This document shows, piece after piece, positions 13,101 to 64,000 of a DNA stretch of 64,000 nucleotides. Made by a program: the position numbers and the translations under genes. This DNA comes from Lingula anatina (taxonomy: Eukaryota; Animalia; Brachiopoda). The notes beneath the pieces are model-generated. The model had not been told where the DNA came from. It did no database searches and saw only the letters and a list, made by a program, of their open reading frames with translations. Each line of letters opens with the position of its first letter. Position 1 is the first letter of the stretch. Where the stretch lies: NCBI GenBank assembly GCA_051362555.1, contig CM120640.1:24910225-24974224 (forward strand), read 5' to 3'.

Positions 13101-13742
13101 AAAAGATGTTGCGCCAGTGCTGTGAGACGACCTGTAATGTTGCTTAAAAGAACAACAAACGCAATTCAACAGATGTCCTGTCAGTGCACAACTAACACAA
13201 TTAAACCTATAAATTGCTGGAAAACTGCATCGTTCACAAAAATATCTTTAAGGACGAGCTTAGTCAAATTTATTTTTTTATCCAACAAAACCAATATGCC
13301 ATGCCATGATTAATGCTGCATAACAAGTGTTGCTGAAAACCTCATGAAACTTTCAGCTTAATCTAATCTTAATCTACAGTATTGCAGATTCAGCTGAAAG
13401 GTGGCAACTTTTCGACATATGCACAGTGGTGACAGAGGTAAATTATTAACAGAAATTAGAAATCATTGTTTAAATTTCAACTTTTAAAATGTGAAATTTC
13501 AAATTTAAACTAGGCAGCAAAGATGGCAAGTATACTGACACCAAACAGCAGAATAAATAACAATATTTAGTTTGGCAAAAAACGCAAATACAGTTTAGCA
13601 GTTATCGGGACTGATGTATGTTTTGGACAGTGATGACACAGACAAACACAGTGATCAGCATCAGAATATATACAAACACATACAGTGTCTATATAAAAAA
13701 GTTGAAAATCAAATATGAAACGCAACATTTGCACTTTATTTG

Positions 13743-39213: not shown

Positions 39214-39589
39214 AGGGATAACAACTGTTCATTTTGGCCAAAAAATGAATTTTCCTAGGGTGAACAGCAATTTTCCCATACTTACCAATGGCTAATGAAT
39301 CCATTTCTACATTCAAAGTTAGTCCCTGTTTTTTTTTCTAAAAAGTGTTTCTTAAAAATTTTTTTAAATTGTTTTTATTTATTTATTTATTTTTATTTTG
39401 TAATAATCTCTTAAGAGATTATTACAGAGTATAGCCATCTATGGAGGTCATGTTGTCGGATGGCAAGCACAGATTTCATATTTATTGCTATAATTGCCGT
39501 TTTTGTGGTAAAATAGAGTATATTTCTATGAGTTGTTTACAATATATTTATTGTAAAATATAGATCTCACACAAAGAGTTGTTATCCCA
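39214..39589. mobile_element. TTAA-flanked MITE (Kolobok-like), copy 2
   Basis: ttaa|AGGGATAACAACT ... AGTTGTTATCCCA|ttaa. Interior is colinear with 19043-19379 (GGCCAAAAAATGAATTTTCC, CCCATACTTACCAATGG, CATTCAAAGTTAGTCCCTG). Confidence 0.88.
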
Positions 39590-41433: not shown

Positions 41434-41465
41434 GAAACCCATCAATTTAGTAAATTTATCTTTAA

Positions 41466-43570
41466 AGGGATAATAACTCTTCGTATGAGATCTATATTTC
41501 ACAATAAAAACATTGTGAACAACTCATAAAAATACAATATATTCTGTTGTACCACAAAAACGGCAATTTTAGCTATAGGGACAGTCGGGCTGACGTCACA
41601 CGCCTTAGCAACCGGCATCTGGGGTAAAACAAATGGGGCAACATGGCGGATCGCATTGACTTCTATGTAAAAGTTGGCAGACTTTGTCCGAATATGTCAT
41701 ACTTCACAGTGACTGACCACTTGTGTCAGTAAGGATGAGTTATTTACCTGGTCGATTTCTTTTACAGGCCTTTGTAATTAGCCGCTGCACACCTGGTTAA
41801 GAGATAAAATCGGCCTTAACATAACTGCCGATCGTTATCTGTGATCGGGATGTTTACAGTAGAATATTTTGCAAAGGCAGTGCTTGACCTTTTGTGTCTA
41901 GCGGATTGAATCATTTACCTGGACTATTGAGTTAGCAGGCCTTTGTAATAAGCTACTGTTTAACTTGTTACGGGATAAAATTGGTCTTAACTGCATACGC
42001 AAATGTCCAGCCTAAGTATATAAATGTACATAAGTTGGTGATATAGGAATGGCTTCTTAGAACGTGGATCGTGAGAAAGGCCTGGAAAATGTGCAACACT
42101 GAGAAGTTATTTCTAAGTAAAGTAAATAAGATTTCTACAAATTGTGATTAAAGCACCTGCTGCTGCAGTAGCCAGGGGAACGGGATAGGGGCAATGTCAT
42201 CGGTCCCATATGGCCTCTTTGGTCCGGATACAGTACATGTATATTAATACAAGCCTGGAAGGACAGCATAAACAGTTGCTTGCTAACGTTTTGGAAGAAA
42301 AGACACGTGGTGTTACTTAATGTATAAATTTTTGCAGCTATGCGTCTTTGAGTGTTTACAATCTTATTGTGCACTTTTCTGGTACGAAAATTGGCGAAAT
42401 ATCATGGAAGACAGAATTAAAATTGAATTGAATAGCAAACACGGTAATAAAGCTGTATGTTATTTTACCAGTTAAGGTCGCTTTATTTATGGCAACTTTT
42501 TTTATATTTTACTTAAATGCTTAAAGATTTAGACATTAACTCACAGGTTTGCCAAAGTATTGACGTATATATTTTTTGTTATCTTTATAACGCCCTCAAT
42601 AAGGTTACCACAAAAGAGTCCGACGTTATAGTCCATTAATTTAAACTAAAAGAATTGATATACCGTCACACACGCAAACACAAGATGCAATCTCAATTTC
42701 TTGTAAATACTACTTATTAATTCATGTAACAAAGGACAAACATGAATTCCAAACAAGGTACAATGACTTTCTCCTTATCTATAATAAAATGAACTATACA
42801 CACATACACAATTCTCGTAGTGCAATGTATAGCTATGACCAAATTTTGTTTCGATCAACAATCCCGTCTTTAGTCACGTTTGCACGACCTATAGCCTGCA
42901 ACAGTCGTTTACTTTTCCGTTGATCTTTGAAATTTAACAATTCCCATAAAATTTTATTAATGTGTTGGTAGTGTCACCTGGTGCACAGCAAGCTTTCACC
43001 ATTTTACTTTTGTACGCGTGCCTGAGAGTTAAACGGTACCGGTTCAATTCAGTAAGCTTGAAAATCTACCCGTCATGTGTGTCAGCAATATGCAACGTCA
43101 ACAGATATTAGTACAATTGAAACCTTCCTTAATTTTATCAGTCCCATATGGTTTTCTTTTCAAAGAGATGTGAATAATATGCTCATCCAGGTAAGCAAAT
43201 GAGTCTTTAACTCTCTAACACTGTAAGATTCCCGATCACAGATAACGATCGGCAGTTAAGGCCGATTTTATCTCTTAACCAGGTGTTCAGCGGCTAATTA
43301 CAAAAGCCTGTAAAGGAAATCAACGAGGTAAATAACTCAACTTCACTGACACAAGTGGTCAGGAACTGTGAAGTATGATGTCTTCGGACAAAGCCTGCCA
43401 ACTTTTTCATAGAAGTCAATGCGATCCGCCATGTTGCCCGATTTGTTTTACCCCAGATGCCGGTTGCTAAGGTAAAGTGCCCGGATGACCGACTGTCCCT
43501 AAATTTCTATGAGTTATTCACAATGTTTTTATTGTGAAACATAGATCTCATACGAAGAGTTATTATCCCT
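41466..43570. mobile_element. Composite 2.1 kb element: two inverted right ends of the TTAA MITE enclosing a long-TIR element
   Basis: ttaa|AGGGATAATAACTCTTCGTATGAGATCTA ... TAGATCTCATACGAAGAGTTATTATCCCT|ttaa. Both ends match the right end of the 19043 and 39214 copies. Confidence 0.8.
41576..43501. mobile_element. Non-autonomous long-TIR element (about 285 bp TIRs, TAG...CTA termini, Academ-like)
   Basis: 41576 to about 41860 is the reverse complement of about 43220-43501 (TAGGGACAGTCGG / CCGACTGTCCCTA; CCTTAGCAACCGGCATCTGGGGTAAAACAAAT). A subterminal segment recurs near 41911-41992. No transposase ORF. The superfamily call rests on the termini only. Confidence 0.8.
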
Positions 43571-45027
43571 TTAAACAGGCTTCATATTTAAGTAGCAAAA
43601 TCACCTATTCTGCGCACATTGCACCATTGAAATCGAAAAGTAATTACGGTACATGTCCAATACTTAATTTCTCAGATCATTGGCCTTACCTCCATTTTCA
43701 GAGGGGGCACCACCTGTAACTTTCTGCCGTCTGTCCATGGTCTGGCCACCATATCCCACGATGTCCCCGCTTTGTTTTCTTGCTGCATATCTCTAGCAGG
43801 TATTGAACAGGTAGTCTACATGTAAGTATCGCTTTCATTAAATTCCATGCTGTAAAAATGAAAACTCCACGCCAGTCAGAAAAATATGCTTCGTATAAGC
43901 TGTGTAATTTCATGTTAAAGTTATTTCATCATTTTGGCTATCTACTTTTTTACTTCTCACCCCAACCCCTGAACCCGTTGAGGCACATTGTTTAACTCTA
44001 TCTTCAGCCAAAAGTATACTTTTTCATTTTAGTTATTAGAGACTCTTCATTAAATGGTTGTATGCTTTTTGTTAATCTTGTTTTAAATAAAAGGCCATTT
44101 GGGTAATTGTAGTAGATGTAGATATTCAAAACGTGACGTTTTTTTCTATAAGTTGACTTTTTACCATATGTAACCTCCGTGTACGTACATATGTGGCCCT
44201 GAGCAAACAATCTTCTTCTGGGGTTCGCCACCCCCTTACCATCTACAGACTGTTAATTTGGGTAATTAAACAATATAAAAGATCACAGGAGCTGAGGGAG
44301 GTAACTCCCTACCTCCCCCGCCCCCCAAACACACACGAAAGTTTTTTTAAACCACGCCAGTTCTGAACAGTGAAAAGGGGGACTATGGAGCCCTGCATGC
44401 CATATTCTTTCAAGCAAATATAAGAAGCAGTTAAAATATTTAAGCAAATGTAAAAAGTGACTAAAACATTAAATCACACCAAGTATATTATCCTTTCGTT
44501 ATCCTTTCTCCTTCGAAAATTAATGCTACCAAAAAACTGAACAACTCCACATAAATATTTATAGCTAAAATGTATTATCACTTTATCTTTATTATCATCA
44601 TCTGTGAAAAAAGAAATGAAATGAAAGTTACTTCAAAGTGCATTGTGGATCAGTGTATATTGTAAATAAGTGTTCCAGTGTAAACGGACAAGGTCGTCCA
44701 ATGATGTCCTGGGGCAGGTTTATAAACTTCAGGTTGACATCATGTCACCAAGATGCACGTACACTGTCAATAATAATTGGGGGAGAGGCATGCGTGGTTT
44801 CCCTCCAAAAACTATTATAGCCGTACATTGATTCTGCCCTCCGAGGTAAATGCGCGTTTTTTTTCTGTTTAAACAAAAAAGTTTAGGTATGAAACCGCTG
44901 AATGCATTTCAAACGTAGGTGTATATACAATGCAATAATGAAATTTGGGTCTCATTCTCATACGACACCCCCGCGTTGAAACTGACAGGATGCTGACGAC
45001 AGCAGCGCCCCTAGCCGACAATCCTTA

Positions 45028-45242
45028 GGGCACATTCCCATAGATTTTAGATCGATCTATCCCCGTGGGGAGTCTCACTAGAATACTGTCAGATAATCCG
45101 GCTTAAATTAAATTACCCCCTTACTACAAACTGTAAAGGGGTAATAAAATTTCGTGCCCGCTCGGCTGAGAGCTATTTAGCGTGAAACCCCAGGGAGTTA
45201 GGTCGATCTAGTTGGATCGAACTAACCTCTGGGAATGGGGTC
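45028..45242. mobile_element. Fold-back MITE with TTA TSD, related to the 15869-16649 element
   Basis: tta|GGGCACATTCCCATAGA..TAGATCGATCTA ... TAGGTCGATCTA..CTCTGGGAATGGGGTC|tta. Shares termini and the central AATTACCCCC with the 15869 element. Confidence 0.7.
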
Positions 45243-45859
45243 TTAGATTGGAAGTCTAAGAGCGGGCAATTGTGAAGCGGGATGGACATGTTGCGTTTCA
45301 CTCCAGAGGAGTACAAAGGACGCGAAGGATAGAGCATTTTCTTCAGGCAACGGCCTTCAAATCTCATGTGATCCTACGCCAATGCATCGCACCTGAGGAT
45401 AGTTTATTTACTAGCACAAAACATCGAATGTTGTGTCTTTTCCCCATGGTGTGGTTCTGTGAATTCGACCCTTCAATCCATGCGAACTCTTCGCTCTGGG
45501 AAATGTACATGTACAAATAACACTCAGCTCTTAGCCCGGACCTCGAATAACCGCCGCAGAAAAATTAATTGCAAATGGACTGAAATCCAAGCTACTGAAG
45601 ATGGGTAAGTGCCACCGTGTCATACTCTCTTTCCATTTCTGTCATATTCCTCTTACGCCTATGTTTCTAGGTCGTTCTTGGAAGTTGAATGTCCTTTGAG
45701 GCTAGAACCAAAACCTTCATATGCCCTATTTACCTGTAGGTCACGCTTGTTTGGTTGTCGTGTTTCTCTTCTAAGGCTGATGTGCATTTTCTCTCAAGTG
45801 TGATTGAGTGTTTTTCCCTGTTGTGTATTGTTTTTATTTACAGACACATGTATCTGTAC

Positions 45860-46440
45860 ATATAGCCTTCACCTGCGTCTGTCATCTCTGTTGTCACTGC
45901 CGTTGCCGTACACTTTCACCGATAACACGATAAGTGGAAAACCTTTTTACCTTTTGGCTTGAAACATACAGAACTGATGAATATTCATAATACACAGGTC
46001 AAATTCGAAAATCAGCATGATCGGGTCATTTTTATAAAAGTTATCCTGTTTTTTCACTTTTTTTTCCAGCATATATGCAACACCGATAACAAGATATGTG
46101 GAAAATTATTTTTACATTTGGATTGAAATTTACAGAACTGATGAATATTCATAGTACACAGGTCAAGTTAGAAAATTGGCATGATCAGACATTTATATAA
46201 AAGCTATTCTGTTTTTTTTTTTAATTTTTTCAGCATATATGCACCACCGATAACACATTTCAAGGAAAATCAATTGGCCAATTGTCTAGAAATTCACAGG
46301 AGTGATCAGTCTTACTGAAATACAGATTTAGTTTGAAAATAAGCTTGATTGGTTAAGTTTTGTTGAAGTTATGCCTTGTTTTTGTATATAAGTGTTTTTT
46401 CCTCAGATTTAATACTAAGGCATGTTAACAGTCTCATTTT
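45860..46440 (+). mobile_element. Helentron/HINE-like non-autonomous element with three 164 bp internal tandem repeats
   Basis: CACCGATAAC starts at 45917, 46081 and 46245 (period 164), preceded by a degenerate CGTCTGTC-type simple repeat. This layout is typical of mollusc Helitron-derived elements. Outer boundaries are approximate. Confidence 0.65.
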
Positions 46441-47189
46441 ATAAATAATTAGATATGTAAAGGTGTTCTTCTGACATTTTCTGCATCTTAACAATATTTT
46501 TAGTTGATTAAATAAAAATGATGGTAAACCTGTTATTGTGTATTGTGTAATAAAGTTTCAAAATGGAAATAAACTCATATCTTTTCAGTTTGTCAGATTA
46601 AATCATTCACTATGTTCAGAATCTCAGAATGGAGGAAATAGGACATATGAAATTATTCTATTGATATTGTCAACAATTTTCTTAGTTGATCGTTTAAAAA
46701 TGACAATAAATTGCTCATTTTGTTTTATGTAAAAAAAAGGTGTTGAAAATTGAAAGAAAATCATTTCAGTACAGTTATCTCTTTTTTTTTTTGGTTTTGG
46801 TAAGTTTTGGTATTTTGAAGGTGTGACTCTGAACTTCCATGACCTTGAAGACCTTTCCATGTCACATTTGTTGAATATCCATTATACTTTTATTTTATTA
46901 TTAAAACTTGATGGTCATTATGCTGTTAAGCATTATATAATATTGCATCAAAACTGAACACATCCCTATTTTGGGCACTGCCTCCACAGTGACCATCAAA
47001 GGAAAACCATGTCACTTTCACTTCTCCAACTTCTCCAACTCAAAAAAAGAAAAGTAGCATAGGACTTAATAGCTTCAGTTGTAAAACCTGTCTTACTCGT
47101 TAATCGTTCTGGAAATTATATAGTTTTAATCTCCTGATCGACTCCGTACAGAAATTGACTAGTTTTCGGATGAAGAATTCAAGTTGAGT

Positions 47190-50100
47190 AATTTTGTGGG
47201 TGTGTGTGTCTGTGGTAGGATGGGTAAATTGAAATAATCTAATCTTGTTTTTCATTTCTTTTTACAGGAAAAAGAAGATGAAGAGCTACCCCACCTGGAC
47301 ATGGACTTCACTCTTGGATCCAAGCTAAGGTTAGTAAATTTGATTTTTTTTGGGGGTGGTGGGATGGGTAAATGGAACAAATCTAATCTTGTTTCTCATT
47401 TCTTTTTACAGGACAAAGAAGATGATGAGCAACCCAACCTAGACATGGACTTCACTCTTGGATCCAAGATAAGGTTAGTAAATTTTATTTTTTGGGGGTT
47501 ATGGGATGGGTAAATTGAAAAAAAAATCTAATCTTGTTTTTCATTTCTTTTTACAGGACAAAGAAGATGCTGAGTGACCCCACCCAGACATGGACTTCAC
47601 TCTTGGATCCCAGCTCAGGTTAGTAAATTTTAATTTTTAAGGGGTGGTGGGATGGGTAAATAGAAAAATTCTAATCTTGTTTCTCATTTCTTTTTACAGG
47701 ACAAAGAAGATGATGAGCGACCCCAACCGGACATGGACTCCACTCTTGGATCCAAGCTAAGGTTAGTAAATTTCATTTTTTGGGAGTGGTGGGATGAGAT
47801 AATTGAAAAAATCTAATCTTGTTTGTCATTTCTTTTTACAGGACAAAGAAGATGATGAGCGACCCGACTTGGACATGGACTTCACTCTAGGATCCCAGCT
47901 AAGGTAGGTAAATTTCATTTTTTGGGGTGGTGGGATGAGATAATTGAAAAAATCTAATCTTGTTTTTCATTTCTTTTTACAGGACAAAGAAGATGATGAG
48001 CGACCCCACCCGGACATGGACTTCACTCTTGGATCCCACCTAAGGTTAGTTAATTTTATTTTTTAGGGGTGGTGGGATGGGTAAATTGAAAAAAATTTAA
48101 TATTGTTTGTCATTTCTTTTTACAGGACAAAGAAGATGAGGAGCAACCCCACCCGGACATGGACTTCACTCTTGGATCCAAGCATAGGTTAGTAAATTTT
48201 ATTATTTTGGGGTGGTGGGATGGGTAAATTGAAAAAATCTAATCTTGTTTTTCTTTTCTTTTTACAGGAGAAAGAAGATATTGAGTGACTCCACCCAGAC
48301 ATGGATTTCACTCTTTGATCCAAGGAAAGGTTAGTAAATTTTATTTTTTGGGGGTGGTGGGTTGGGTAAATTGAAAAAATCTAATCTTGTTTTTCATTTT
48401 TTTTTACAGGACAAAGAAGATGATGAGGGACCCCACCCAGACATGGACTTCACTCTTGGATCCAAGCTAAGGTTAGTAAATTTTATTTTTTTGGGGTGGT
48501 GGGATTGGTAAATTGAAAAAAATCTAATGTTGTTTTTCATTTCTTTTTAAAGGACAAAGAAGATGATGAGCGACCCCACTCGGACATGGACTTCACTCTT
48601 GGAACCCACCTCAGGTTAGTAAATTTTATTTTTTAGAGGTGGTGGGATGGGTAAATTGAAAGAATCTAATCTTGTTTTTCATTTCTTTTTACAGGACAAA
48701 GAAGATGAGGAGCAACCCCACCCGGACATGGACTTCACTCTTGGATCCAAGCATAGGTTAGTAAATTTTATTATTTTGGGGTGGTGGGATGGGTAAATTG
48801 AAAAAATCTAATCTTGTTTTTCTATTCTTTTTACAGGAGAAAGAAGATATTGAGTGACTCCACCCAGACATGGACTTCACTCTTGGATACAAGGAAAGGT
48901 TAGTAAATTTTATTTTTTGGGGGTGGTGGGTTGGGTAAATTGAAAAAATCTAATCTTGTTTTTCATTTCTTTTTACAGGACAAAGAAGATGATGAGGGAC
49001 CCCACCCAGACATGGACTTCACTCTTTGATCCAAGCTAAGGTTAGCAAATTTTATTTTTTTGGGGTGGTGGGATTGGTAAATTGAAAAAAATCTAATGTT
49101 GTTTTTCATTTCTTTTTAAAGGACAAAGAAGATGATGAGCGACCCCACTCGGACATGGACTTCACTCTTGGAACCCAGCTCAGGTTAGTAAATTTTATTT
49201 TTTAGAGGTGGTGGGATGGGTAAATTGAAAGAATCTAATCTTGTTTTTCATTTCTTTTTACAGGACAAAGAAGATGATGAGCAACCCCACTCGGACATGG
49301 ACTTCACTCTTGGAACCCAGCTCAGGTTAGTAAATTTTATTTTTTAGAGGTGGTGGGATTGGTAAATTGAAAAAATCTAATGTTCTTTTTCATTTCTTTT
49401 TAAAGGACAAAGAAGATGATGAGCGACCCCACTCGGACATGGACTTCACTCTTGGAACCCAGCTCAGGTTAGTAAATTTTATTTTTTAGAGGTGGTGGGA
49501 TGGGTAAATTGAAAGAATCTAATCTTGTTTTTCATTTCTTTTTACAGGACAAAGAAGATGAGGAGCAACCCCACCCGGACATGGACTTCACTCTTGGATC
49601 CAAGCATAGGTTAGTAAATTTTATTATTTTGGGGTGGTGGGATGGGTAAATTGAAAAAATCTAATCTTGTTTTTCTTTTCTTTTTACAGGACAAAGAAGA
49701 TATTGAGTGACTCCACCCAGACATGGACTTCACTCTTGGATACAAGGAAAGGTTAGTAAATTTTATTTTTTGGGGGTGGTGGGTTGGGTAAATTGAAAAA
49801 ATCTAATCTTGTTTTTCATTACTTTTTACAGGACAAAGAAGATGATGAGGGACCCCACCCAGACATGGACTTCACTCTTGGATCCAAGCTAAGGTTATCA
49901 AATTTTATTTTTTTGGGGTGGTGGGATTGGTAAATTGAAAAAAATCTAATGTTGTTTTTCATTTCTTTTTAAAGGACAAAGAAGATGATGAGCGACCCCA
50001 CTCGGACATGGACTTCACTCTTGGAACCCAGCTCAGGTTAGTAAATTTTATTTTTTAGAGGTGGTGGGATGGGTAAATTGAAAGAATCTAATCTTGTTTT

Positions 50101-53100
50101 TCATTTCTTTTTACAGGACAAAGAAGATGAGGAGCAACCCCACCCGGACATGGACTTCACTCTTGGATCCAAGCATAGGTTAGTAAATTTTATTATTTTG
50201 GGGTGGTGGGATGGGTAAATTGAAAAAATCTAATCTTGTTTTTCTATTCTTTTTACAGGAGAAAGAAGATATTGAGTGACTCCACCCAGACATGGACTTC
50301 ACTCTTGGATACAAGGAAAGGTTAGTAAATTTTATTTTTTGGGGGTGGTGGGTTGGGTAAATTGAAAAAATCTAATCTTGTTTTTCATTTCTTTTTACAG
50401 GACAAAGAAGATGATGAGGGACCCCACCCAGACATGGACTTCACTCTTGGAACCCAGCTCAGGTTAGTAAATTTTATTTTTTAGAGGTGGTGGGATTGGT
50501 AAATTGAAAAAATCTAATGTTCTTTTTCATTTCTTTTTAAAGGACAAAGAAGATGATGAGCGACCCCACTCGGACATGGACTTCACTCTTGGAACCCAGC
50601 TCAGGTTAGTAAATTTTATTTTTTAGAGGTGGTGGGATGGGTAAATTGAAAGAATCTAATCTTGTTTTTCATTTCTTTTTACAGGACAAAGAAGATGAGG
50701 AGCAACCCCACCCGGACATGGACTTCACTCTTGGATCCAAGCATAGGTTAGTAAATTTTATTATTTTGGGGTGGTGGGATGGGTAAATTGAAAAAATCTA
50801 ATCTTGTTTTTCTTTTCTTTTTACAGGACAAAGAAGATATTGAGTGACTCCACCCAGACATGGACTTCACTCTTGGATACAAGGAAAGGTTAGTAAATTT
50901 TATTTTTTGGGGGTGGTGGGTTGGGTAAATTGAAAAAATCTAATCTTGTTTTTCATTTCTTTTTACAGGACAAAGAAGATGATGAGCAACCCCACTCGGA
51001 CATGGACTTCACTCTTGGAACCCAGCTCAGGTTAGTAAATTTTATTTTTTAGAGGTGGTGGGATGGGTAAATTGAAAGAATCTAATCTTGTTTTTCATTT
51101 CTTTTTACAGGACAAAGAAGATGAGGAGCAACCCCACCCGGACATGGACTTCACTCTTTGATCCAAGCATAGGTTAGTAAATTTTATTATTTTGGGGTGG
51201 TGGTATGGGTAAATTGAAAAAATCTAATCTTGTTTTTCTTTTCTTTTTACAGGAGAAAGAAGATATTGAGTGACTCCACCCAGACATGGACTTCACTCTT
51301 GGATACAAGGAAAGGTTAGTAAATTTTATTTTTTGGGGGTGGTGGGTTGGGTAAATTGAAAAAATCTAATCTTGTTTTTCATTTCTTTTTACAGGACAAA
51401 GAAGATGATGAGGGACCCCACCCAGACATGGACTTCACTCTTGGATCCAAGCTAAGGTTAGTAAATTTTATTTTTTAGAGGTGGTGGGATGGGTAAATTG
51501 AAAGAATCTAATCTTGTTTTTCATTTCTTTTTACAGGACAAAGTAGATGATGAGCAACCCAACGTGCACATGGACTTCACTCTTGGATCCCTGATTAGGT
51601 TAGTAAATTTTATTTTTTTGGGTTGGTGGGATGGGTTAATTGAAAAAATCTAATGTTCTTTTTCATTTCTTTTAACAGGACAAAGAAGATGATGAGCGAC
51701 CCCACCCGGACATGGACTTCACTCTTGGATCCCAGCTAAGGTTAGTAAATTTCATTTTTTGGGGGTGGTGGGATGAGATAATTGAAAAAATCTAATCTTG
51801 TTTGTCATTTCTTTTTACAGGACAAAGAAGATGATGAGCGACCCCACTCGGACATGGACTTCACTCTAGGATCCCAGCTAAGGTAGGTAAATTTCATTTT
51901 TTGGGGGTGGTAGGATGAGATAATTGAAAAAATCTAATCTTGTTTTTCATTTCTTTTTACAGGACAAAGTAGATGATGAGCAACCCAACGTGCACATGGA
52001 CTTCACTCTTGGATCCCTGATTAGGTTAGTAAATTTTATTTTTTTGGGTTGGTGGGATGGGTTAATTGAAAAAATCTAATGTTCTTTTTCATTTCTTTTA
52101 ACAGGACAAAGAAGATGATGAGCGACCCCACCCGGACATGGACTTCACTCTTGGATCCCAGCTAAGGTTAGTAAATTTCATTTTTTGGGGGTGGTGGGAT
52201 GAGATAATTGAAAAAATCTAATCTTGTTTGTCATTTCTTTTTACAGGACAAAGAAGATGATGAGCGACGCCACTCGGACATGGACTTCACTCTAGGATCC
52301 CAGCTAAGGTAGGTAAATTTCATTTTTTGGGGGTGGTAGGATGAGATAATTGAAAAAATCTAATCTTGTTTTTCATTTCTTTTTACAGGACAAAGAAGAT
52401 GATGAGCGACCCCACCCGGACATGGACTTCACTCTTGGATCCCACCTAAGGTTAGTTAATTTTATTTTTTAGGGGTGGTGGGATGGGTAAATTGAAAAAA
52501 ATTTAATATTGTTTGTCATTTCTTTTTACAGGACAAAGAAGATGAGGAGCAACCCCACCCGGACATGGACTTCACTCTTGGATCCAAGCATAGGTTAGTA
52601 AATTTTATTATTTTGGGGTGGTGGGATGGGTAAATTGAAAAAATCTAATCTTGTTTTTCTTTTCTTTTTACAGCAGAAAGAAGATATTGAGTGACTCCAC
52701 CCAGACATGGACTTCACTCTTGGATACAAGGAAAGGTTAGTAAATTTTATTTTTTAGAGGTGGTGGGATTGGTGAATAGAGAAAATCTAATCTTGTTTTT
52801 CTTTTCTTTTTACAGGACAAAGAAGATGATGAGGGACCCCACCCGGACATGGATTTCACTCTTGGATCCCAGCTAAGGTTAGTAAATTTCATTTTTTGGG
52901 GGTGGTGGGTTGGGTAAATTGAAAAAATCTAATCTTGTTTTTCATTTCTTTTTACAGAAAAAAAGACGATGATGAGCAGACCCACTTGGACATGGAGTTC
53001 ACTCTTTGATCCAAGCTAAGGTTAGTAGATTTTATTTTTTGGGGGTGGTGGGATATGAGTAAATTGAAAAAATCTAATCTTGTTTTTCATTTCTTTTTAC

Positions 53101-56100
53101 AGGACAAAGAAGATGATGAGGGACCCCACCCAGACATGGACTTCACTCTTGGATCCAAGCTAAGGTTAGTAAATTTTATTTTTTGGGGGTGGTGGGATTG
53201 GTAAATTGAAAAAAATCTAATGTTGTTTTTCATTTCTTTTTAAAGGACAAAGAAGATGATGAGCAACCCCACTCGGACATGGACTTCACTCTTGGAACCC
53301 AGCTCAGGTTAGTAAATTTTATTTTTTAGAGGTGGTGGGATGGGTAAATTGAAAGAATCTAAACTTGTTTTTCATTTCTTTTTACAGGACAAAGAAGATG
53401 ATGAGCAACCCAACGTGCACATGGACTTCACTCTTGGATCCCTGATTAGGTTAGTAAATTTTATTTTTTTGGGTTGGTGGGATGGGTTAATTGAAAAAAT
53501 CTAATGTTCTTTTTCATTTCTTTTAACAGGACAAGGAAGATGATGAGCGACCCCACCCGGACATGGACTTCACTCTTGGATCCCAGCTAAGGTTAGTAAA
53601 TTTCATTTTTTGCGGGTGGTGGGATGAGATAATTGAAAAAATCTAATCTTGTTTTTCATTTCTTTTTACAGGACAAAGAAGATGATGAGCGACCCCACCC
53701 AGACATGGACTTCACTCTTGGATCCCACCTAAGTTTAGTTAATTTTATTTTTTAGGGGTGGTGGGATGGGTAAATTGAAAAAAATTTAATATTGTTTGTC
53801 ATTTCTTTTTACAGGACAAAGAAGATGAGGAGCAACCCCACCCGGACATGGACTTCACTCTTGGATCCAAGCATAGGTTAGTAAATTTTATTATTTTGGG
53901 GTGGTGGGATGGGTAAATTGAAAAAATCTAATCTTGTTTTTCATTTCTTTTTACAGGACAAAGAAGATGATGAGCGACCCCACCCGGACATGGACTTCAC
54001 TCTTGGATCCAAGCTAAGGTTAGTAAATTTTATTTTTTAGAGGTGGTGGGATTGGTGAATAGAGAAAATCTAATCTTGTTTTTCATTTCTTTTTAAAGGA
54101 CAAAGAAGATGATGAGGGACCCCACCCGGACATGGATTTCACTCTTGGATCCCAGCTAAGGTTAGTAAATTTCATTTTTTGGGGGTGGTGGGTTGGGTAA
54201 ATTGAAAAAATCTAATCTTGTTTTTCATTTCTTTTTACAGAAAAAAGAAGATGATGAGCAGACCCACTTGGACATGGAGTTCACTCTTTGATCCAAGCTA
54301 AGGTTAGTAGATTTTATTTTTTGGGGGTGGTGGGATATGAGTAAATTGAAAAAATCTAATCTTGTTTTTCATTTCTTTTTACAGGACAAAGAAGATGATG
54401 AGGGACCCCACCCAGACATGGACTTCACTCTTGGATCCAAGCTAAGGTTAGTAAATTTTATTTTTTGGGGGTGGTGGGATTGGTAAATTGAAAAAAATCT
54501 AATGTTGTTTTTCATTTCTTTTTAAAGGACAAAGAAGATGATGAGCAACCCCACTCGGACATGGACTTCACTCTTGGAACCCAGCTCAGGTTAGTAAATT
54601 TTATTTTTTAGAGGTGGTGGGATGGGTAAATTGAAAGAATCTAAACTTGTTTTTCATTTCTTTTTACAGGACAAAAAAGATGATGAGCAACCCAACGTGC
54701 ACATGGACTTCACTCTTGGATCCCTGATTAGGTTAGTAAATTTTATTTTTTTGGGTTGGTGGGATGGGTTAATTGAAAAAATCTAATGTTCTTTTTCATT
54801 TCTTTTAACAGGACAAGGAAGATGATGAGCGACCCCACCCGGACATGGACTTCACTCTTGGATCCCAGCTAAGGTTAGTAAATTTCATTTTTTGCGGGTG
54901 GTGGGATGAGATAATTGAAAAAATCTAATCTTGTTTATCATTTCTTTTTACAGGACAAAGAAGATGATGAGCGACCCCACCCGGACATGGACTTCACTCT
55001 TGGATCCCACCTAAGGTTAGTTAATTTTATTTTTTAGGGGTGGTGGGATGGGTAAATTGAAAAAAATTTAATATTGTTTGTCATTTCTTTTTACAGGACA
55101 AAGAAGATGAGGAGCAACCCCACCCGGACATGGACTTCACTCTTGGATCCAAGCATAGGTTAGTAAATTTTATTATTTTGGGGTGGTGGGATGGGTAAAT
55201 TGAAAAAATCTAATCTTGTTTTTCATTTCTTTTTACAGGACAAAGAAGATGATGAGCGACCCCACCCGGACATGGACTTCACTCTTGGATCCAAGCTAAG
55301 GTTAGTAAATTTTATTTTTTAGAGGTGGTGGGATTGGTGAATAGAGAAAATCTAATCTTGTTTTTCATTTCTTTTTAAAGGACAAAGAAGATGATGAGGG
55401 ACCCCACCCGGACATGGATTTCACTCTTGGATCCCAGCTAAGGTTAGTAAATTTCATTTTTTGGGGGTGGTGGGTTGGGTAAATTGAAAAAATCTAATCT
55501 TGTTTTTCATTTCTTTTTACAGAAAAAAGAAGATGATGAGCAGACCCACTTGGACATGGAGTTCACTCTTTGATCCAAGCTAAGGTTAGTAGATTTTATT
55601 TTTTGGGGGTGGTGGGATATGAGTAAATTGAAAAAATCTAATCTTGTTTTTCATTTCTTTTTACAGGACAAAGAAGATGATGAGGGACCCCACCCAGACA
55701 TGGACTTCACTCTTGGATCCAAGCTAAGGTTAGTAAATTTTATTTTTTGGGGGTGGTGGGATTGGTAAATTGAAAAAAATCTAATGTTGTTTTTCATTTC
55801 TTTTTAAAGGACAAAGAAGATGATGAGCAACCCCACTCGGACATGGACTTCACTCTTGGAACCCAGCTCAGGTTAGTAAATTTTATTTTTTAGAGGTGGT
55901 GGGATGGGTAAATTGAAAGAATCTAAACTTGTTTTTCATTTCTTTTTACAGGACAAAGAAGATGATGAGCAACCCAACGTGCACATGGACTTCACTCTTG
56001 GATCCCTGATTAGGTTAGTAAATTTTATTTTTTTGGGTTGGTGGGATGGGTTAATTGAAAAAATCTAATGTTCTTTTTCATTTCTTTTAACAGGACAAGG

Positions 56101-59100
56101 AAGATGATGAGCGACCCCACCCGGACATGGACTTCACTCTTGGATCCCAGCTAAGGTTAGTAAATTTCATTTTTTGCGGGTGGTGGGATGAGATAATTGA
56201 AAAAATCTAATCTTGTTTATCATTTCTTTTTACAGGACAAAGAAGATGATGAGCGACCCCACCCGGACATGGACTTCACTCTTGGATCCCACCTAAGGTT
56301 AGTTAATTTTATTTTTTAGGGGTGGTGGGATGGGTAAATTGAAAAAAATTTAATATTGTTTGTCATTTCTTTTTACAGGACAAAGAAGATGAGGAGCAAC
56401 CCCACCCGGACATGGACTTCACTCTTGGATCCAAGCATAGGTTAGTAAATTTTATTATTTTGGGGTGGTGGGATGGGTAAATTGAAAAAATCTAATCTTG
56501 TTTTTCATTTCTTTTTACAGGACAAAGAAGATGATGAGGGACCCCACCCGGACATGGACTTCACTCTTGGATCCAAGCTAAGGTTAGTAAATTTTATTTT
56601 TTAGAGGTGGTGGGATTGGTGAATAGAGAAAATCTAATCTTGTTTTTCATTTCTTTTTAAAGGACAAAGAAGATGATGAGGGACCCCACCCGGACATGGA
56701 TTTCACTCTTGGATCCCAGCTAAGGTAAGTAAATTTCATTTTTTGGGGATTGTTGGATGAGATAATTGAAAAAATCTAATCTTGTTTTTCATTTCTTTTT
56801 ACAGGACAAAGAAGATGAGGAGCAACCCCACCCGGACATGGACTTCACCCTTGGATCCCAGCTAAGGTTAGTAAATTTCATTTTTTGGGGGTGGTGGGTT
56901 GGGTAAATTGAAAAAATCTAATCTTGTTTTTCATTTCTTTTTACAGGAAAAAGAAGATGATGAGCAGACCCACTTGGACATGGAGTTCACTCTTTGATCC
57001 AAGCTAAGGTAAGTAGATTTTATTTTTTGGGGGTGGTGGGATATGAGTAAATTGAAAAAATCTAATCTTTTTTTGTTCTTTTCTTTTTACAGGACAAAGA
57101 AGATATTGAGGGACTCCACCCAGACATGGACTTTACTCTTGGATCCAAGGAAAGGTTAGTAAATTTTATTTTTTGGGGGTGGTGGGTTGGGTAAATTGAA
57201 AAAATCTAATCTTGTTTTTCATTTCTTTTTACAGGACAAAGAAGATGATGAGGGACCCCACCCAGACATGGACTTCACTCTTGGATCCAAGCTAAGGTTA
57301 GTAAATTTTATTTTTTTTGGGGTGGTGGGATTGGTAAATTGAAAAAAATCTAATGTTGTTTTTCATTTCTTTTTAAAGGACAAAGAAGATGATGAGCGAC
57401 CCCACTCGGACATGGACTTCACTCTTGGAACCCAGCTACGGTAAGTTAATTTCATTTTTTAGAGGTTGTGGGATGGGTAAATTGAAAGAATCTAATCTTC
57501 TTTTTCATTTCTTTTTACAGGACAAAGAAGATGATGAGCAACCCAACGTGGACATGGACTTCACTCTTGGATCCCTGATAAGGTTAGTAAATTTTATTTT
57601 TTGGGGTTGGTGAGATGGGTTAATTGAAAAAATCTAATCTTCTTTTTCATTTCTTTTAACAGGACAAAGAAGATGATGAGCGACCCCACCCGGATATGGA
57701 CTTCACTCTTGGATCCCAGCTAAGGTTAGTAAATTGCATTTTTTGGGGGTGGTGGGATGAGATAATTGAAAAAATCTAAACTTGTTTGTCATTTCTTTTT
57801 ACAGGACAAAGAAGATGATGAGCGACCCCACTTGGACATGGACTTCACTCTAGGATCCCAGCTAAGGTAAGTAAATTTCATTTTTTGGGGGTGGTGGGAT
57901 GAGATAATTGAAAAAATCTAAACTTGTTTTTCATTTCTTTTTACAGGACAAAGAAGATGATGAGCGACCCCACCTGGACATGGACTTCACTCTTGGATCC
58001 CAGCTCAGGTTAGTAAATTTTAATTTTTGGGGGTGGTGACATGAGTAAATTGAAAAAACTTATCTTGTTTTTCATTTCTTTTTACAGGAAAAAGGAGATG
58101 ATGAATGACCCCACCCGGACATGGACTTCACTCTTCGATCCCAGCTCAGGTTAGTAAATTTTATTTTTTAGGGGTGTTGGGATGGGTAAATAGAAAAATT
58201 CTAATCTTGTTTTTCATTTCTTTTTACAGGACAAAGAAGATGATGAGCGACCCCACCCGGATATGGACTTCACTCTTGGATCCCAGCTAAGGTTAGTAAA
58301 TTTTATTTTTTTGGGGTGGTGGGATTGGTAAATTGAAAAAAATCTAATGTTGTTTTTCATTTATTTTTAAAGGACAAAGAAGATGATGAGCGACCCCACT
58401 TGGACATGGACTTCACTCTTGGAACCCAGCTACGGTAAGTAAATTTCATTTTTTAGAGGTTGTGGGATGGGTAAATTGAAAGAATCTAATCTTCTTTTTC
58501 ATTTCTTTTTACAGGACAAAGAAGATGATGAGCAACCCAACGTGGACATGGACTTCACTCTTGGATCCCTGATAGGGTTAGGAAATTTTATTTTTTTGGG
58601 TTGGTGGGATGGGTTAATTGAAAAAATCTAATCTTCTTTTTCATTTCTTTTAACAGGACAAAGAAGATGATGAGCGACCCCACCCGGACATGGACTTCAC
58701 TCTTGGATCCCAGCTAAGGTTAGTAAATTTCATTTTTTGGGGGTGGTGGGAAGAGATAATTGAAAAAATCTAATCTTGTTTGTCATTTCTTTTTACAGGA
58801 CAAAGAGGATGATGAGCGACCCCACTTGGACATGGACTTCACTCTAGGATCCCAGCTAAGGTAAGTAAATTTCATTTTTTGGGGTGGTGGGATGAGATAA
58901 TTGAAAAAATCTAATCTTGTTTTTCATTTCTTTTTACAGGACAAAGAAGATGATGAGCGACCCCACCTGGACATGGACTTCACTCTTGGATCCCAGCTCA
59001 GGTTAGTAAATTTTATTTTTTGGGGGTGGTGACATGAGTAAATTGAAAAAACTTATCTTGTTTTTCATTTCTTTTTACAGGAAAAAGATGATGAATGACC

Positions 59101-62100
59101 CCACCCGGACATGGACTTCACTCTTGGATCCCAGCTCAGGTTAGTAAATTTTATTTTTTAGGGGTGTTGGGATGGGTAAATAGAAAAATTCTAATCTTGT
59201 TTTTCATTTCTTTTTACAGGACAAAGAAGATGATGAGTGACCCCACCCGGACATGGACTTCACTCTTGGATCCAAGCTTAGGTTAGTAACTTTCATTTTT
59301 TGGGGGTGGTGGGATGAGATAATTGAAATAATCTAATCTTGTTTTTCATTTCTTTTTACAGGACAAAGAAGATGATGAGCCCCCCCACCCGGACATGGAC
59401 TTCACTCTTGGATCCCAGCTAAGGTTGGTAAATTTTATTTTTTGGGGTTGGTGACATGAGTAAATTGAAAAAAGTTAATCTTGTTTTTCATTTCTTTTTA
59501 CAGGACAAAGAAGATGATGAGTGACCCCACCCGGACATGGACTTCATACTTGGATCCCAGCTCAGGTTAGTAAATTTTATTTTTTAGAGGTGGTGGGATG
59601 GGTACATTGAAAGAATCTAATCTTGTTTTTAATTTCTTTTAACAGGACAAAGAAGATGATGAGCGACCCCACCCGGACATGGACTTCACTCTTGGATCCC
59701 ACCTCAGGTTAGTTCATTTTATTTTTTAGGGGTGGTGGGATGGGTAAATTGAAAAAAAATTTAATATTGTTTGTCATTTCTTTTTACAGGACAAAGAAGA
59801 TGATGAGCAAATCAAATGGACATGGACTTCACTCTTGGATCCCTGCTAAGGTTAGTAAATTTAATTTTTTGGGGGTGGTGGGTTGGGTAAATTGAAAAAA
59901 TCTAATCTTGTTTTTCATTTCTTTTTACAGACAAAGAAGATGATGAGGGACCCCACCCAGACATGGACTTCACTCTTGGATCCAAGCTTAGGTTAGTAAC
60001 TTTCATTTTTTGGGGGTGGTGGGATGAGATAATTGAAATAATCTAATCTTGTTTTTCATTTCTTTTTACAGGACAAAGAAGATGATGAGCCACCCCACCC
60101 GGACATGGACTTCACTCTTGGATCCCAGCTAAGGTTAGTAAATTTTATTTTTTGGGGTTGGTGACATGAGTAAATTGAAAAAACTTTTTTTTTTTTCATT
60201 TCTTTTTACAGGACAAAGAAGATGATGAGTGACCCCACCCGGACATGGACTTCACTCTTGGATCCAAGCTTAGGTTAGTAACTTTCATTTTTTGGGGGTG
60301 GTGGGATGAGATAATTGAAATGATCTAATCTTGTTTTTCATTGCTTTTTACAGGACAAAGAAGATGATGAGCGACCCCACCCGGACATGGACTTCACTCT
60401 TGGATCCCAGCTAAGGTTAGTAAATTTTATTTTTTGGGGTTGGTGACATGAGTAAATTGAAAAAAGTTAATCTTGTTTTTAATTTCTTTTAACAGGACAA
60501 AGAAGATGATGAGTGACCCCACCCGGACATGGACTTCACTCTTGGATCCCACCTCAGGTTAGTTCATTTTATTTTTTAGGGGTGGTGGGATGGGTAAATT
60601 GATAAAAAATTTAATATTGTTTGTCATTTCTTTTGACAGGACAAAGAAGATGATGAGCAAATCAAATGGACATGGACTTTACTCTTGGATCCCTGCTAAG
60701 GTTAGTAAATTTTATTTTTTGGGGGTGGTGGGTTGGGTAAATTGAAAAAATCTAATCTTGTTTTTCATTTCTTTTTACAGACAAAGAAGATGATGAGGGA
60801 CCCCACCCAGACATGGACTTCACTCTTGGATCCAAGCTAAGGTTAGTAAATTTCATTTTTTATAGGTTGTGGGATGGGTAAATTGAAAGAATCTAATCTT
60901 CTTTTTCATTTCTTTTTACAGGACAAAGAAGATGATGAGCAACCCAACGTGGACATGGACTTCACTCTTGGATCCCTGATAGGGTTAGTAAATTTTATTT
61001 TTTTGGGTTGGTGGGATGGGTTAATTGAAAAAATCTAATCTTCTTTTTCATTTCTTTTAACAGGACAAAGAAGATGATGAGCGACCCCACCCGGACATGG
61101 ACTTTACTCTTGGATCCCAGCTAAGGTTAGTAAATTTCATTTTTTGGGGGTGGTGTGAAGAGATAATTGAAAAAATCTAATCTTGTTTGTCATTTCTTTT
61201 TACAGGACAAAGAGGATGATGAGCGACCCCACTTGGACATGGACTTCACTCTAGGATCCCAGCTAAGGTAAGTAAATTTCATTTTTTGGGGGTGGTGGGA
61301 TGAGATAATTGAAAAAATCTAATCTTGTTTTTCATTTCTTTTTACAGGACAAAGAAGATGATGAGCGACCCCACCTGGACATGGACTTCACTCTTGGATC
61401 CCAGCTCAGGTTAGTAAATTTTATTTTTGGGGGTGGTGACATGAGTAAATTGAAAAAACTTTTTTTTTTCATTTCTTTTTACAGGAAAAAGAAGATGATG
61501 AATGACCCCACCCGGACATGGACTTCATACTTGGATCCCAGCTCAGGTATGTGGGTATTACCTCCAATATTTCTGTGACTGTCAGTCACCATCATCAGTG
61601 ATTAGGGGCAATTGACCTGGATTTTCATTCCAGGTGAAATGACCCTAGTCATTTACTCCCTGATGATGGTGACTGACAGTCACAGAAATATTGGAGGTAA
61701 TACCCACATATTTTACAAGCTCTTGATAAAAAGAAAAACAGTAATTTGAATTTATACATACAGAGCTAATGAAACTGTTCTCTCATAAGGTTACTAAATT
61801 TTATTTTTTGGGGGTGGTGACATGAGTAAATTGAAAAAATCTAATCTTGTTTTTCATTTCTTTTTACAGGACAAAGAAGATGATGAGGGACCCCACCCAG
61901 ACATGGACTTCACTCTTGGATCCCAGATCAGGTTAGTAAATTTCATTTTTTGGGGGTGGGGGGATGAGATAATTGAAAAAATCTAATCTTGTTTTTCATT
62001 TCTTTTTACAGGAAAAAGAAGATGATGAGTGACCCCACCCGGACATGGACTTCACTCTTGGATCCCAGCTCAGGTTAGTAAATTTTATTTTTTAGTGGTG

Positions 62101-64000
62101 GTGGGATGGGTAAATAGAAAAATTCTAATCTTGTTTTTCATTTCTTTTTACAGGACAAAGAAGATGATGAGTGACCCCACCCGGACATGGACTTCACTCT
62201 TGGATCTAAGCTTAGGTTAGTAAATTTCATTTTTTGGGGTGGTGGGATGAGATAATTGAAAAAATCTAATCTTGTTTTTCATTTCTTTTTACAGGACAAA
62301 GAAGATGATGAGGGACCCCACCCGGACATGGACTTCACTCTTGGATCCAAGCTAAGGTTAGTAAATTTTATTTTTTTGGGGTGGTGGGATTGGTGAATAG
62401 AGAAAATCTAATCTTGTTTTTCATTTCTTTTTACAGGACAAAGAAGATGATGAGGGACCCCACCCGGACATGCACTTCACTCTTGGATCCCAGCTAAGGT
62501 TAGTAAATTTCATTTTTTGGGGATGGTTGGATGAGATAATTGAAAAAATCTAATCTTGTTTTTCATTTCTTTTTACAGGACAAAAAAGATGAGGAGCAAC
62601 CCCACCCGGACATGGACTTCACCCTTGGATCCCAGCTAAGGTTAGTAAATTTCATTTTTTGGGGGTGGTGGGTTGGGTAAATTGAAAAAATCTAATCTTG
62701 TTTTTCATTTCTTTTCACAGGAGGAAGAAGATGATGAGCGACCCCACCCGGACATGGACTTCACTCTTGGATCCCACCTCAGGTTAGTTCATTTTATTTT
62801 TTAGGGGTGGTGGGATGGGTAAATTGAAAAAAATTTAATATTGTTTGTCATTTCTTTTTACAGGACAAAAAGAAGATGAGGAGCAACCCCACCCGGACAT
62901 GGACTTCACTCTTGGATCCAAGCATAGGTTGGTAAATTTTATTTTTTTGGGGTGGTGGGATGGGTAAATTGAAAAAAATTTAATATTGTTTGTCATTTCT
63001 TTTTACAGGACAAAGAAGATGATGAGTGACGCCACCCGGACATGGACTTCACTCTTGGATCCAAGCAAAGGTTAGTAAATTTTATTTTTTGAGGGTAGTG
63101 GGAAAATCTAATCTTGTTTTTTTATTTCTTTTTACCTGATAAAGAAGATGATGAGGGACCCCTCCCGGACATGGACTTCACTCTTGGATCCCAGCTCAGG
63201 TTAGTAAATTTTATTTTTTAGAGGTGGTGGGATGGGTACATTGAAAGAATCTAATCTTGTTTTTCATTTCTTTTTACCTGATAAAGAAGATGATGAGGGA
63301 CCCCTCCCGGACATGGACTTCACTCTTGGATCCCAGTTCAGGTTAGTAAATTTTATTTTTTAGAGGTGGTGGGATGGGTACATTGAAAGAATCTAATCTT
63401 GTTTTTCATTTCTTTTTACCTGATAAAGAAGATGATGAGGGACCCCTCCCGGACATGGACTTCACTCTTGGATCCCAGCTCAGGTTAGTAAATTTTATTT
63501 TTTAGAGGTGGTGGGATGGGTACATTGAAAGAGTCTAATCTTGTTTTTCATTTCTTTTTACAGGTCAAAGAAGATGATGAGGGACCCCACCTGGACATGG
63601 ACTTCACTCTTGGATCCCAGCTAAGGTAAGTAAATTTCATTTTTTAGGGGTGGTTGGATGAGATAATTGAAAAAATCTAATCTTGTTTTTCATTTCTTTT
63701 TACAGGACAAAGAAGATGAGGAGCGACCCCACCCGGACATGGACTTCACCCTTGGATCCCAGCTAAGGTTAGTAAATTTCATTTTTTGGGGGTGGTGGGT
63801 TGGGTAAATTGAAAAAATCTAATCTTGTTTTTCATTTCTTTTCACAGGACGAAGAAGATGATGAGCAACCCAACTTGGACATGGAGTTCCCTCTTTGATC
63901 CAAGCTAAGGTTAGTAAATTTTATTTTTTGGGGGTGGTGGGATGAGATAATTGAAAAAATCTAATCTTGTTTTTCATTTCTTTTTACAGGACAAAGAAGA
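47190..64000 (+). repeat. Tandem array of about 115 units of ~142 bp, each with exon-intron architecture; runs off the window end
   Basis: Consensus: GACAAAGAAGATGATGAGCGACCCCACCCGGACATGGACTTCACTCTTGGATCCCAGCTAAG (62 nt) | gttagtaaattttattttttgggggtggtgggatgggtaaattgaaaaaatctaatcttgtttttcatttctttttacag (~80 nt). First exon-like segment starts at 47268; others at 47700, 47842, 47983. Copy number is estimated from length divided by period. Confidence 0.98.
61548..61710. mobile_element. 163 bp palindromic insertion (TA-bounded MITE-like) inside the array
   Basis: 61548-61598 and 61660-61710 are perfect 51 nt inverted repeats (TATGTGGGTATTACCTCCAATATTTCTGTGACTGTCAGTCACCATCATCAG). The spacer is also partly self-complementary (ACCTGGA/TCCAGGT). 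Confidence 0.88.

Follow-up and report, generated by a model that had tools for sequence, protein, structure and literature searches.

In a 64,000-nt stretch of the genome of the brachiopod Lingula anatina (GenBank assembly GCA_051362555.1, contig CM120640.1, positions 24,910,225 to 24,974,224; hereafter the window, with its own numbering) we found 116 tandem exon-intron units of about 142 bp each, reaching from 47,212 to beyond the window end, and RNA reads in which units of this family are spliced to each other. The best explanation, to which we assign a probability of roughly 0.6, is a many-exon non-coding RNA gene whose sense transcript joins units of the family serially behind a unique upstream exon, the 116 copies of the window being probably contained in that transcript. 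A preliminary description, made from the letters alone, had counted about 115 such cassettes of about 142 bp on one strand, in good agreement with our count. It offered three models: a many-exon lncRNA, an array that contributes a single exon to each transcript, and a satellite that is no longer spliced. Its interpretation was partly supported overall, and the transcription and serial splicing of the first model were borne out by the reads.

The array and the units to which reads were assigned are as follows.

47212 to 64000, plus strand: tandem array of 116 units, each a 62-nt exon and a GT-AG intron of about 80 nt, running past the window edge.
47268 to 47329, plus strand: unit 1 exon; seven reads of run X1 go on from its end into the start of a different unit exon.
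47330 to 47411, plus strand: unit 1 intron (GTTAGT ... G runs ... CTAAT ... CAG), seen in the sequence and as a drop in X1 depth.
47412 to 47473, plus strand: unit 2 exon, with a joint that 'goes back 62'; the end of the previous exon precedes it in five reads.
47557 to 47618, plus strand: unit 3 exon; three reads of run X6, from a second study, run on into a unit-exon start.
52816 to 56662, plus strand: units 40-66, a 9-unit block (about 1.28 kb) present in three near-identical copies, a recent higher-order duplication recognised from the lag of nine units and the nearest-neighbour list.

TRF reported a 142-bp period over 47,212-61,548 (100.8 copies) and 61,786-64,000 (15.7 copies) with 89% matches, and counting exons by an anchor motif gave 116, with one more beginning where the window ends. 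The exon length of 62 nt named in the preliminary description holds for 106 of the 116 units, measured from acceptor to donor; seven others measure 59-64 nt, and AG is absent in three. Introns are 79-82 nt long in 107 of 115 cases, and the array contains 87 BamHI sites. Interior units are about 11% apart from one another and form higher-order blocks of 3, 4, 9 and 18 units, with a distance of one or less in 17 of the 104 unit pairs at lag 9. The array evolves in satellite fashion, with head-to-tail monomers and higher-order duplication that includes recent duplications of 9-unit blocks. Relatives of the unit in the first 47.2 kb of the window did not go beyond chance AT-rich matches of 10-19 nt, and a 28-nt exon pattern had no match among metagenome contigs. 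The gene body would have grown through unequal crossing-over of a single 142-bp exon-intron unit, and the block structure suggests that every duplication brought a ready-made exon together with its intron.

RNA evidence came from four of nine listed runs, mRNA-type and tied to this DNA through the species label, whose reads were placed on 47,000-47,625 (units 1-3) at 82% likeness. These runs yielded 59, 6, 41 and 9 reads among 12.4, 9.5, 8.4 and 10.7 million records, respectively, which is a low expression level for the unit family. The X1 depth was almost wholly first-mate-minus, which we read as sense under the usual convention for stranded libraries, and this sense depth was 0.6-4.4 in the three inner bins of the unit 1 intron versus 11-24 over the flanking exons. 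The joint from 47471 back to 47410, found in four reads with four starts (side 58), corresponds with its three letters of slack to a step from the exon end at 47,473 to the exon start at 47,412. Loose read ends passed from an exon end into an exon start in seven reads and placed an exon end ahead of an exon start in five and four reads, and the three X6 reads add splicing in a different study (all these counts may share reads). Among the entries listed for X4 and X8, three loose-end rows excepted, none was spliced. Many reads were unspliced, and X6 covered introns on both strands. The preliminary description had given an example of a junction sequence as absent from the DNA, and of the 115 20-mers that span exon-exon junctions none is present in the window DNA with up to two mismatches allowed; the spliced junction reads that it proposed to look for were found in two studies, for the unit family.

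Only 5 of 115 reads were at least 95% alike to units 1-3, which is partly expected because of the divergence among interior units. Letters present in none of the 116 units occurred in 10 of 20 X1 reads at exon position 36 and in 9 of 15 at position 47. With about half of the X1 reads thus carrying alleles foreign to the window, much of the spliced RNA has its source elsewhere, in a paralogous array, a different haplotype or units past the window's edge. Transcription and splicing of the repeats as successive exons, as in a lncRNA, is therefore demonstrated for the unit family in runs with the same species label, and not for each copy.

Upstream of the array the reads define two further features.

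45534 to 45604, plus strand: unique upstream exon with the donor GG/GTAAGT at 45,604/5; its 3' end is shown by the reads and its start was set from the median loose-end length, 71 nt.
45605 to 47267, plus strand: putative first intron, delimited by the junction reads, containing a 164-bp two-copy repeat at 45,917-46,255 and ending in a partial array intron.

Four X1 reads join the upstream exon, a stretch unique within the window, to a unit exon, and 29 of 30 consensus letters agree with the window. The CpG observed/expected ratio is 0.85-1.0 at 44,801-45,600 versus 0.16-0.49 at 46,001-47,200. In the reads the partner of the upstream exon is closer to unit 2 than to unit 1, so that exon skipping may still occur, and reads over the flank at 47,042-47,125 likewise differ from the window by about 10%. 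As a separate observation, a COPS2-like gene lies upstream of the array; TFIIF-alpha searches returned arthropod and mollusc matches with 53-71% identity.

The coding capacity of the spliced units is small. Among 113 exons frame 2 is stopped in 110, frame 1 in 63 and frame 0 in 28; the preliminary description had rightly stated that frame 2 nearly always and frame 1 often stops, and had left the stops of frame 0 unmentioned. Because an exon of 62 nt shifts the frame at each junction, and because a stop is almost always present in one of the frames, no long protein can be encoded in the computed spliced RNA. The statement that an ORF spans at most about two exons did not hold, as open stretches in the serially spliced model usually comprise 60-61 codons, or about three exons. 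The longest stretch from stop to stop has 102 codons and occurs once, and even with free skipping the limit would be 169. Synonymous changes make up 15 of 59 alleles compared with 37 of 180 possible ones, and thus there is no coding constraint. Searches for protein relatives of the unit peptides returned none (0 of 11 candidates, 0 in 1.84 billion proteins, 0 Pfam families), a weak test with queries of 20 residues and intron padding. A donor lying four bases further on, inside the intron, would give an in-frame 66-nt exon; it was rejected because 28 of 113 exons have earlier stops in that frame, 11 more stop at the GTAAGT or GTAGGT variants, and the cut seen in the reads is the one at 62 nt. 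The portion covered by the window accordingly lacks a substantial or constrained ORF, as a lncRNA does, and its units show neither the frame-keeping length nor the constrained alleles of a repeated-exon coding gene. The spliced RNA would carry many short open frames ahead of many splice junctions and for this reason would probably be degraded by nonsense-mediated decay or held in the nucleus, in keeping with the low level seen.

It is possible, though unlikely, that the copies in the window are a recent frameshifted, satellite-like outgrowth, mostly skipped or silent, and that the true exons belong to older, diverged units located further downstream or in a paralogue; these exons may be 63 nt long and code for a 21-residue repeat. 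This would account for the foreign alleles in about half of the X1 reads, for the partner of the upstream exon that resembles unit 2 more than unit 1, and for the very recent block duplications. A few reads also hint that the family includes a diverged exon of 63 nt that keeps the frame: two loose-end consensus strings (47430-behind, 6 reads, agreement 0.76; 47414-before, 4 reads) share a 14-letter overlap and, with the aligned part, give by hand count a 63-nt exon in which frames 0 and 1 are free of stops, a count based on 10 reads that are perhaps from different units. Against this reading, 62-nt exons are serially spliced in RNA, as the joint that goes back 62 letters shows, the last ATG of the upstream exon leads only five codons into the unit exon, and the frame-0 peptides are without a protein relative in searches that are weak for such short queries.

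Under the many-exon non-coding gene that we prefer, any function, which may be slight, would most likely reside in the spliced repeat RNA or in the splicing process. A more specific proposal, which we consider quite unlikely, is that splicing itself is the product: more than 116 near-identical, cargo-free 80-nt introns on one transcript would act as a local sink or scaffold for spliceosome and exon-junction complexes, or as a source of many identical lariats. The unit would then stem from a 63-nt coding exon which, once out of frame, multiplied as satellites do, so that the change from coding to non-coding would still be under way.

The splice signals of the array are largely intact. AG and GT are both retained in 112 of 116 units. 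The donor GTTAGT with its variants GTAAGT and GTAGGT, as named in the preliminary description, was recovered in 98, 8 and 3 of the 116 units (others, 7), and the CTAAT branch point placed there about 25 nt before the intron end is present in 95 of 115 introns, with TTAAT in 11 of 115. The word AATAAA is absent from the sense strand of the array and occurs 82 times on the opposite strand. A reading of the exons on the minus strand was rejected: the acceptor is unconserved, the exon would measure 59 nt by hand count, and the reads are sense. The following units are damaged or interrupted.

61547 to 61789, plus strand: 243-bp interruption at the unit 101 donor, consisting of an unrelated intron-like piece of about 82 nt (GT ... 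CTAAT ... TAAG) with a palindromic insertion, adjoining a normal array intron.
61550 to 61708, no strand assigned: MITE-like element bounded by perfect terminal inverted repeats of 49 bp and with TA on both flanks, which may be a TA-inserting MITE.
63138 to 63483, plus strand: units 111-113, with CT in place of the acceptor AG, a single event copied three times.

The comparison of variation at splice positions, also proposed in the preliminary description, gave a divided answer. Nine core splice positions have on average 1.3 variant copies versus 7.5 elsewhere (base-matched permutation P=0.017, copies non-independent), whereas the conservation of the four GT/AG positions taken alone is not significant (P=0.13, likewise with non-independent copies). 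The excess conservation of the nine positions is weak. These data bear on the view that the array is an inert satellite derived from an exon-intron unit, with reads that stem from leaky read-through, perhaps out of the COPS2-like gene upstream, and are spliced incidentally through still-young signals. The low level with many unspliced reads, the satellite-like turnover, the 4 of 116 units already broken and the GT/AG result would agree with it; we nevertheless hold it to be improbable given the poly(A) selection, sense bias and precise splicing of the reads, their dedicated upstream exon, the CpG-rich DNA around that exon and the weak excess conservation at the nine positions. Satellite DNA with higher-order repeats is still a close comparison, as the array shares its head-to-tail monomers, their divergence and the nested blocks, but here the monomer is a complete one-strand splicing cassette, and members of the family follow a unique exon in spliced poly(A) RNA. 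The unspliced-satellite model of the preliminary description is therefore contradicted for the unit family by the spliced reads and not for each copy of the window, and its satellite-like evolution stands in the 9-unit blocks.

Tailed mirtrons have a G-rich middle and a pyrimidine-rich end, and so does the array intron. That the array hosts small RNAs, its spliced introns (mirtron-like) or repeated transcript feeding miRNA, siRNA or piRNA pathways, also draws on a layout like that of mammalian intron-cargo arrays as described in PMC3413130, and we judge it very improbable. Rfam gave no match at gathering score over the window and only five antisense matches at chance level (E 0.34-0.69) in 44,900-49,000. 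A C box was found in 0 of 115 introns and CTGA in one; the word RTGATGA, present in 92 of 116 exons, was rejected as a snoRNA sign, being exonic and with CTGA in only 9. Across 90 distinct units the intron gave an empty consensus fold, and single introns folded at -5.7 to -14.1 kcal/mol, with z-scores of -0.44 to +1.17 for three of them. The sole consensus helix, which spans the acceptor with 6 bp at -1.2 kcal/mol, was without two-sided change. A canonical quadruplex of four G-triplet runs occurred in 0 of 115 introns and a loose two-G pattern in 90. The repeated introns thus show neither the box C/D or H/ACA element of a snoRNA host array nor the stable, conserved hairpin of a mirtron or intronic miRNA cluster.

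Dscam-type mutually exclusive clusters likewise consist of tandem duplicated exons with splice sites of their own, but a choice of one exon per transcript to vary a peptide, which could cite the open frame 0 in 85 of 113 exons and the upstream exon not joined to unit 1 in the reads seen, is hardly credible and in its strict form contradicted, because reads hold two successive unit exons, the phase of the upstream exon does not enter frame 0, a quarter of the exons are stopped in the best frame, and coding constraint and coding context are lacking.

Two of the closest known systems are mammalian. According to PMC3413130 and PMC3792690, the SNORD115 and SNORD116 host genes (115HG/116HG) and rat Bsr/RBII-36 are long non-coding transcripts of tandem repeated exons and introns that are serially spliced; every intron of these arrays houses a box C/D snoRNA, and in neurons the 116HG transcript gathers into an RNA cloud within the nucleus. 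The Lingula array resembles these hosts in its tandem exons and introns spliced in series and differs in an intron of only 80 nt without snoRNA box, Rfam match or conserved fold, and in a host that is not a mammal. Its transcript would work like the spliced host RNA of the SNORD116 array, minus the small RNA in the intron. In the FIRRE lncRNA, as described in PMC4820808, the local repeat RRD is exonic in 7 of 13 human and 11 of 23 mouse exons. There, too, a locus-specific repeat forms many exons of a non-coding RNA, but here more than 116 exon-intron units of 142 bp stand head to tail, and we claim no sequence relationship. A cargo-free invertebrate array of this type was not described in the paper listings searched, most subscription journals lying outside their scope.

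Annotation would mask this repeat as satellite; the RNA evidence shows it to be a spliced exon-intron array, and one whose exons are very numerous for a stretch of this size, at least 116 in 17 kb. The repeated-exon architecture of the mammalian SNORD hosts is here separated from the snoRNA cargo. Because the copies carry traceable alleles, the array is a natural system for questions on splicing and duplication, such as selection on non-coding splice signals, the serial recognition of short introns with weak donors, and how tandem duplication makes a lncRNA or a satellite out of an exon. Even if its transcription should be leaky and functionless, the array would still be a clean case of the birth of a satellite from a gene.

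TRF on the window found a 142-bp period over 47,212-61,548 and 61,786-64,000, and counting an anchor motif gave 116 exon-like blocks, with a 117th just beginning where the window ends. The tandem exon-intron array claimed in the preliminary description is thus present and matches it. Blocks were 62 nt long in 106 of the 116 units, and introns measured 79-82 nt in 107 of 115. Donors read GTTAGT (98/116), GTAAGT (8/116) or GTAGGT (3/116), and CTAAT lay about 25 nt upstream of the acceptor in 95 of 115 introns. Both AG and GT were intact in 112 of 116 units; unit 46 has TT in place of the donor, and in units 111-113 the acceptor reads CT. Further upstream, a gene ending at 37,982, which we take from its translation to be COPS2-like, contains 11 introns and splices to an ORF of 443 residues. 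Since these introns mostly share an AG/GT start and an end with T-tract and YAG, the array splice signals resemble real ones of this organism. AATAAA was absent from the sense strand of the array in 17 kb and occurred 82 times on the opposite strand, mostly as one consensus word.

Nine raw RNA runs were assigned by species label only, and four of them were aligned to units 1-3 and their flank (47,000-47,625) at a likeness threshold of 82%.

RNA runs with reads aligned to the array start
X1: 59 reads among 12.4 million records, poly(A)
X4: 6 reads among 9.5 million records
X6: 41 reads among 8.4 million records
X8: 9 reads among 10.7 million records

Depth in X1 came nearly all from first mates on the minus strand, which indicates plus-strand RNA if the usual stranded protocol applies; this is the strand bearing the array splice signals. 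The single split-read junction listed (47471 to 47410, going back 62) was covered by four reads, all beginning at different points, with a shorter side of 58 letters; given its slack of three letters, it corresponds to an exon end joined to an exon start. Among the consensuses of unaligned read ends listed, which may share reads with one another and with the split junction, seven X1 reads leave exon 1 at its end and continue into the start of a unit exon, and an exon end precedes an exon start in five and four reads. Three reads of X6, a different study, were likewise spliced at exon 3. The spliced junction reads that the preliminary description had called for were found for the unit family in both X1 and X6, and none of 115 junction 20-mers occurred in the window DNA, as expected there. 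Four X1 reads showed, ahead of a unit exon, the 3' terminus of another exon, which ends at 45,604 before GTAAGT and whose sequence occurs once in the window; the consensus matches it in 29 of 30 letters. An intronless DNA copy elsewhere may be the source of such reads, and would itself presuppose earlier splicing. At the level of the family, the reads show that the sense strand is transcribed, that exons are spliced to each other where predicted, and that a unique exon lies upstream. Splicing is demonstrated for this family and for a transcript with the upstream exon of this locus or a close copy, rather than for each copy in the window. We favor a low-level, many-exon non-coding gene, with a probability of about 0.6.

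Only 5 of 115 reads were at least 95% alike to units 1-3, which is partly expected because units differ on average by about 16 changes per 142. Letters matching none of the 116 units were found in X1 at exon position 36 (10 of 20 reads) and position 47 (9 of 15), and reads over the unique flank diverged by about 10%; much of the signal thus comes from units beyond the window, another haplotype or a paralogous array. The exon joined to the upstream exon resembled unit 2 more than unit 1, and some units may therefore be skipped or the first unit may be another one. Unspliced reads were frequent, and those of X6 lay on both strands. The exon-start variant of the seven spliced X1 reads occurs within the window at the last unit only (unit 116, 63,848), a hint that expressed units may be located further downstream. 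Two words of 7 and 10 nt in the upstream exon (45,574-45,596) recur, with their order kept, in the 3' half of the unit exon, which may reflect a diverged unit relative or chance.

A long ORF is absent from the window's part of the putative transcript. Of 113 exons, 28 contained a stop codon in frame 0, 63 in frame 1 and 110 in frame 2. In a serially spliced model (112 exons, 6,940 nt) the longest stop-to-stop stretch was 102 codons, with 60-61 being typical, and free exon skipping gave at most 169. Reading from the final ATG in the upstream exon yields only 5 codons, and an ORF of 61 codons is possible if this exon extends further upstream. Synonymous alleles were not enriched (15/59 observed versus 37/180 possible), and unit peptides showed no relative in protein and Pfam searches, a weak test with peptides this short. 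Two consensus strings of unaligned ends from reads at 47,412-47,430 (six reads, agreement 0.76; four reads, 0.99) overlap by 14 letters and by hand count imply a diverged 63-nt exon of a type absent from the window. This exon would be stop-free in two frames, with hydrophobic spacing as in an amphipathic helix in frame 0. It may mark a coding ancestor or relative that gave rise to the 62-nt unit, on the basis of ten reads possibly from different units. It is conceivable, if rather unlikely, that the array is a mostly skipped outgrowth within a gene that relies on exons located elsewhere, which perhaps code for protein.

We consider an inert satellite with leaky transcription quite improbable. 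In an alignment of 114 units, which omitted unit 101 and the final one, nine core splice positions averaged 1.3 variant copies versus 7.5 elsewhere (base-matched permutation, P=0.017), and the four GT/AG positions alone averaged 1.75 versus 7.2 (P=0.13). With 47 of 142 positions invariant and copies non-independent, this lends weak support to selection on splice positions. Near-identical units repeat at lags of 3, 4, 9 and 18, and units 40-66 form a 9-unit block present three times, a pattern that appears to be the mark of recent unequal crossing-over. Unit 101 (61,547-61,789) carries an intron-like piece, about 82 nt long and unrelated to the array introns, whose TAAG end lies directly before the GT of the normal intron, an AG/GT arrangement resembling a zero-length exon or a site of recursive splicing. 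Two bases into this piece sits an inserted palindromic, TA-flanked element of 159 bp, which has terminal inverted repeats of 49 bp and leaves a GTATGT donor. The piece may have survived from the structure of the parent gene.

A role as small-RNA host is likewise quite improbable: Rfam gave no match in the window at gathering score (five chance-level hits fell at the array start), none of 115 introns contained a C box, and the consensus intron fold over 90 distinct units was empty, with weak single folds. The snoRNA and mirtron readings are unsupported, and in lacking a snoRNA the array differs from snoRNA host genes. A cassette system using one exon per transcript is barely credible beside unit exons joined to each other.

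The neighboring upstream genes are intron-rich and of animal type. Pfam identified an ankyrin-repeat gene, TFIIF-alpha (invertebrate matches at 53-71%) and an F-box gene 5' of the array, and another gene there is presumably RPL37-like, judging from its translation.

Other features of the window
13,002-14,873: an unnamed gene with exons on the minus strand, flanked by the ankyrin and TFIIF-alpha genes
15,864-16,654: inverted repeats nested within each other in an intergenic stretch (50 bp at 98% and 75 bp at 77%)
19,036-19,383; 39,483-39,597; 41,458-41,860; 43,220-43,575: scattered short repeat families (75-93% identity)
45,917-46,255: a 164-bp repeat present twice

The 197-residue ORF of the unnamed gene had no Pfam match. 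The nested inverted repeats are probably a foldback element, two dispersed repeat copies form a large inverted pair bordering 41.9-43.2 kb, and the 164-bp pair lies inside what we take, by resemblance, to be a Helentron-associated non-autonomous element.

For a many-exon non-coding gene, the window copies would belong to the spliced transcript of the family, the array would have expanded via unequal crossing-over, and the transcript might be turned over by nonsense-mediated decay or nuclear retention. The architecture is like that of 116HG, a spliced host RNA that forms a nuclear cloud (PMC3792690), and of FIRRE, where 7 of 13 human exons consist of a local repeat that serves as a nuclear retention signal (PMC4820808); the array is not a member of either by descent. 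A search of an incomplete literature collection listed no cargo-free invertebrate counterpart. What is striking about the Lingula array is its scale and compactness, supported by junction reads.
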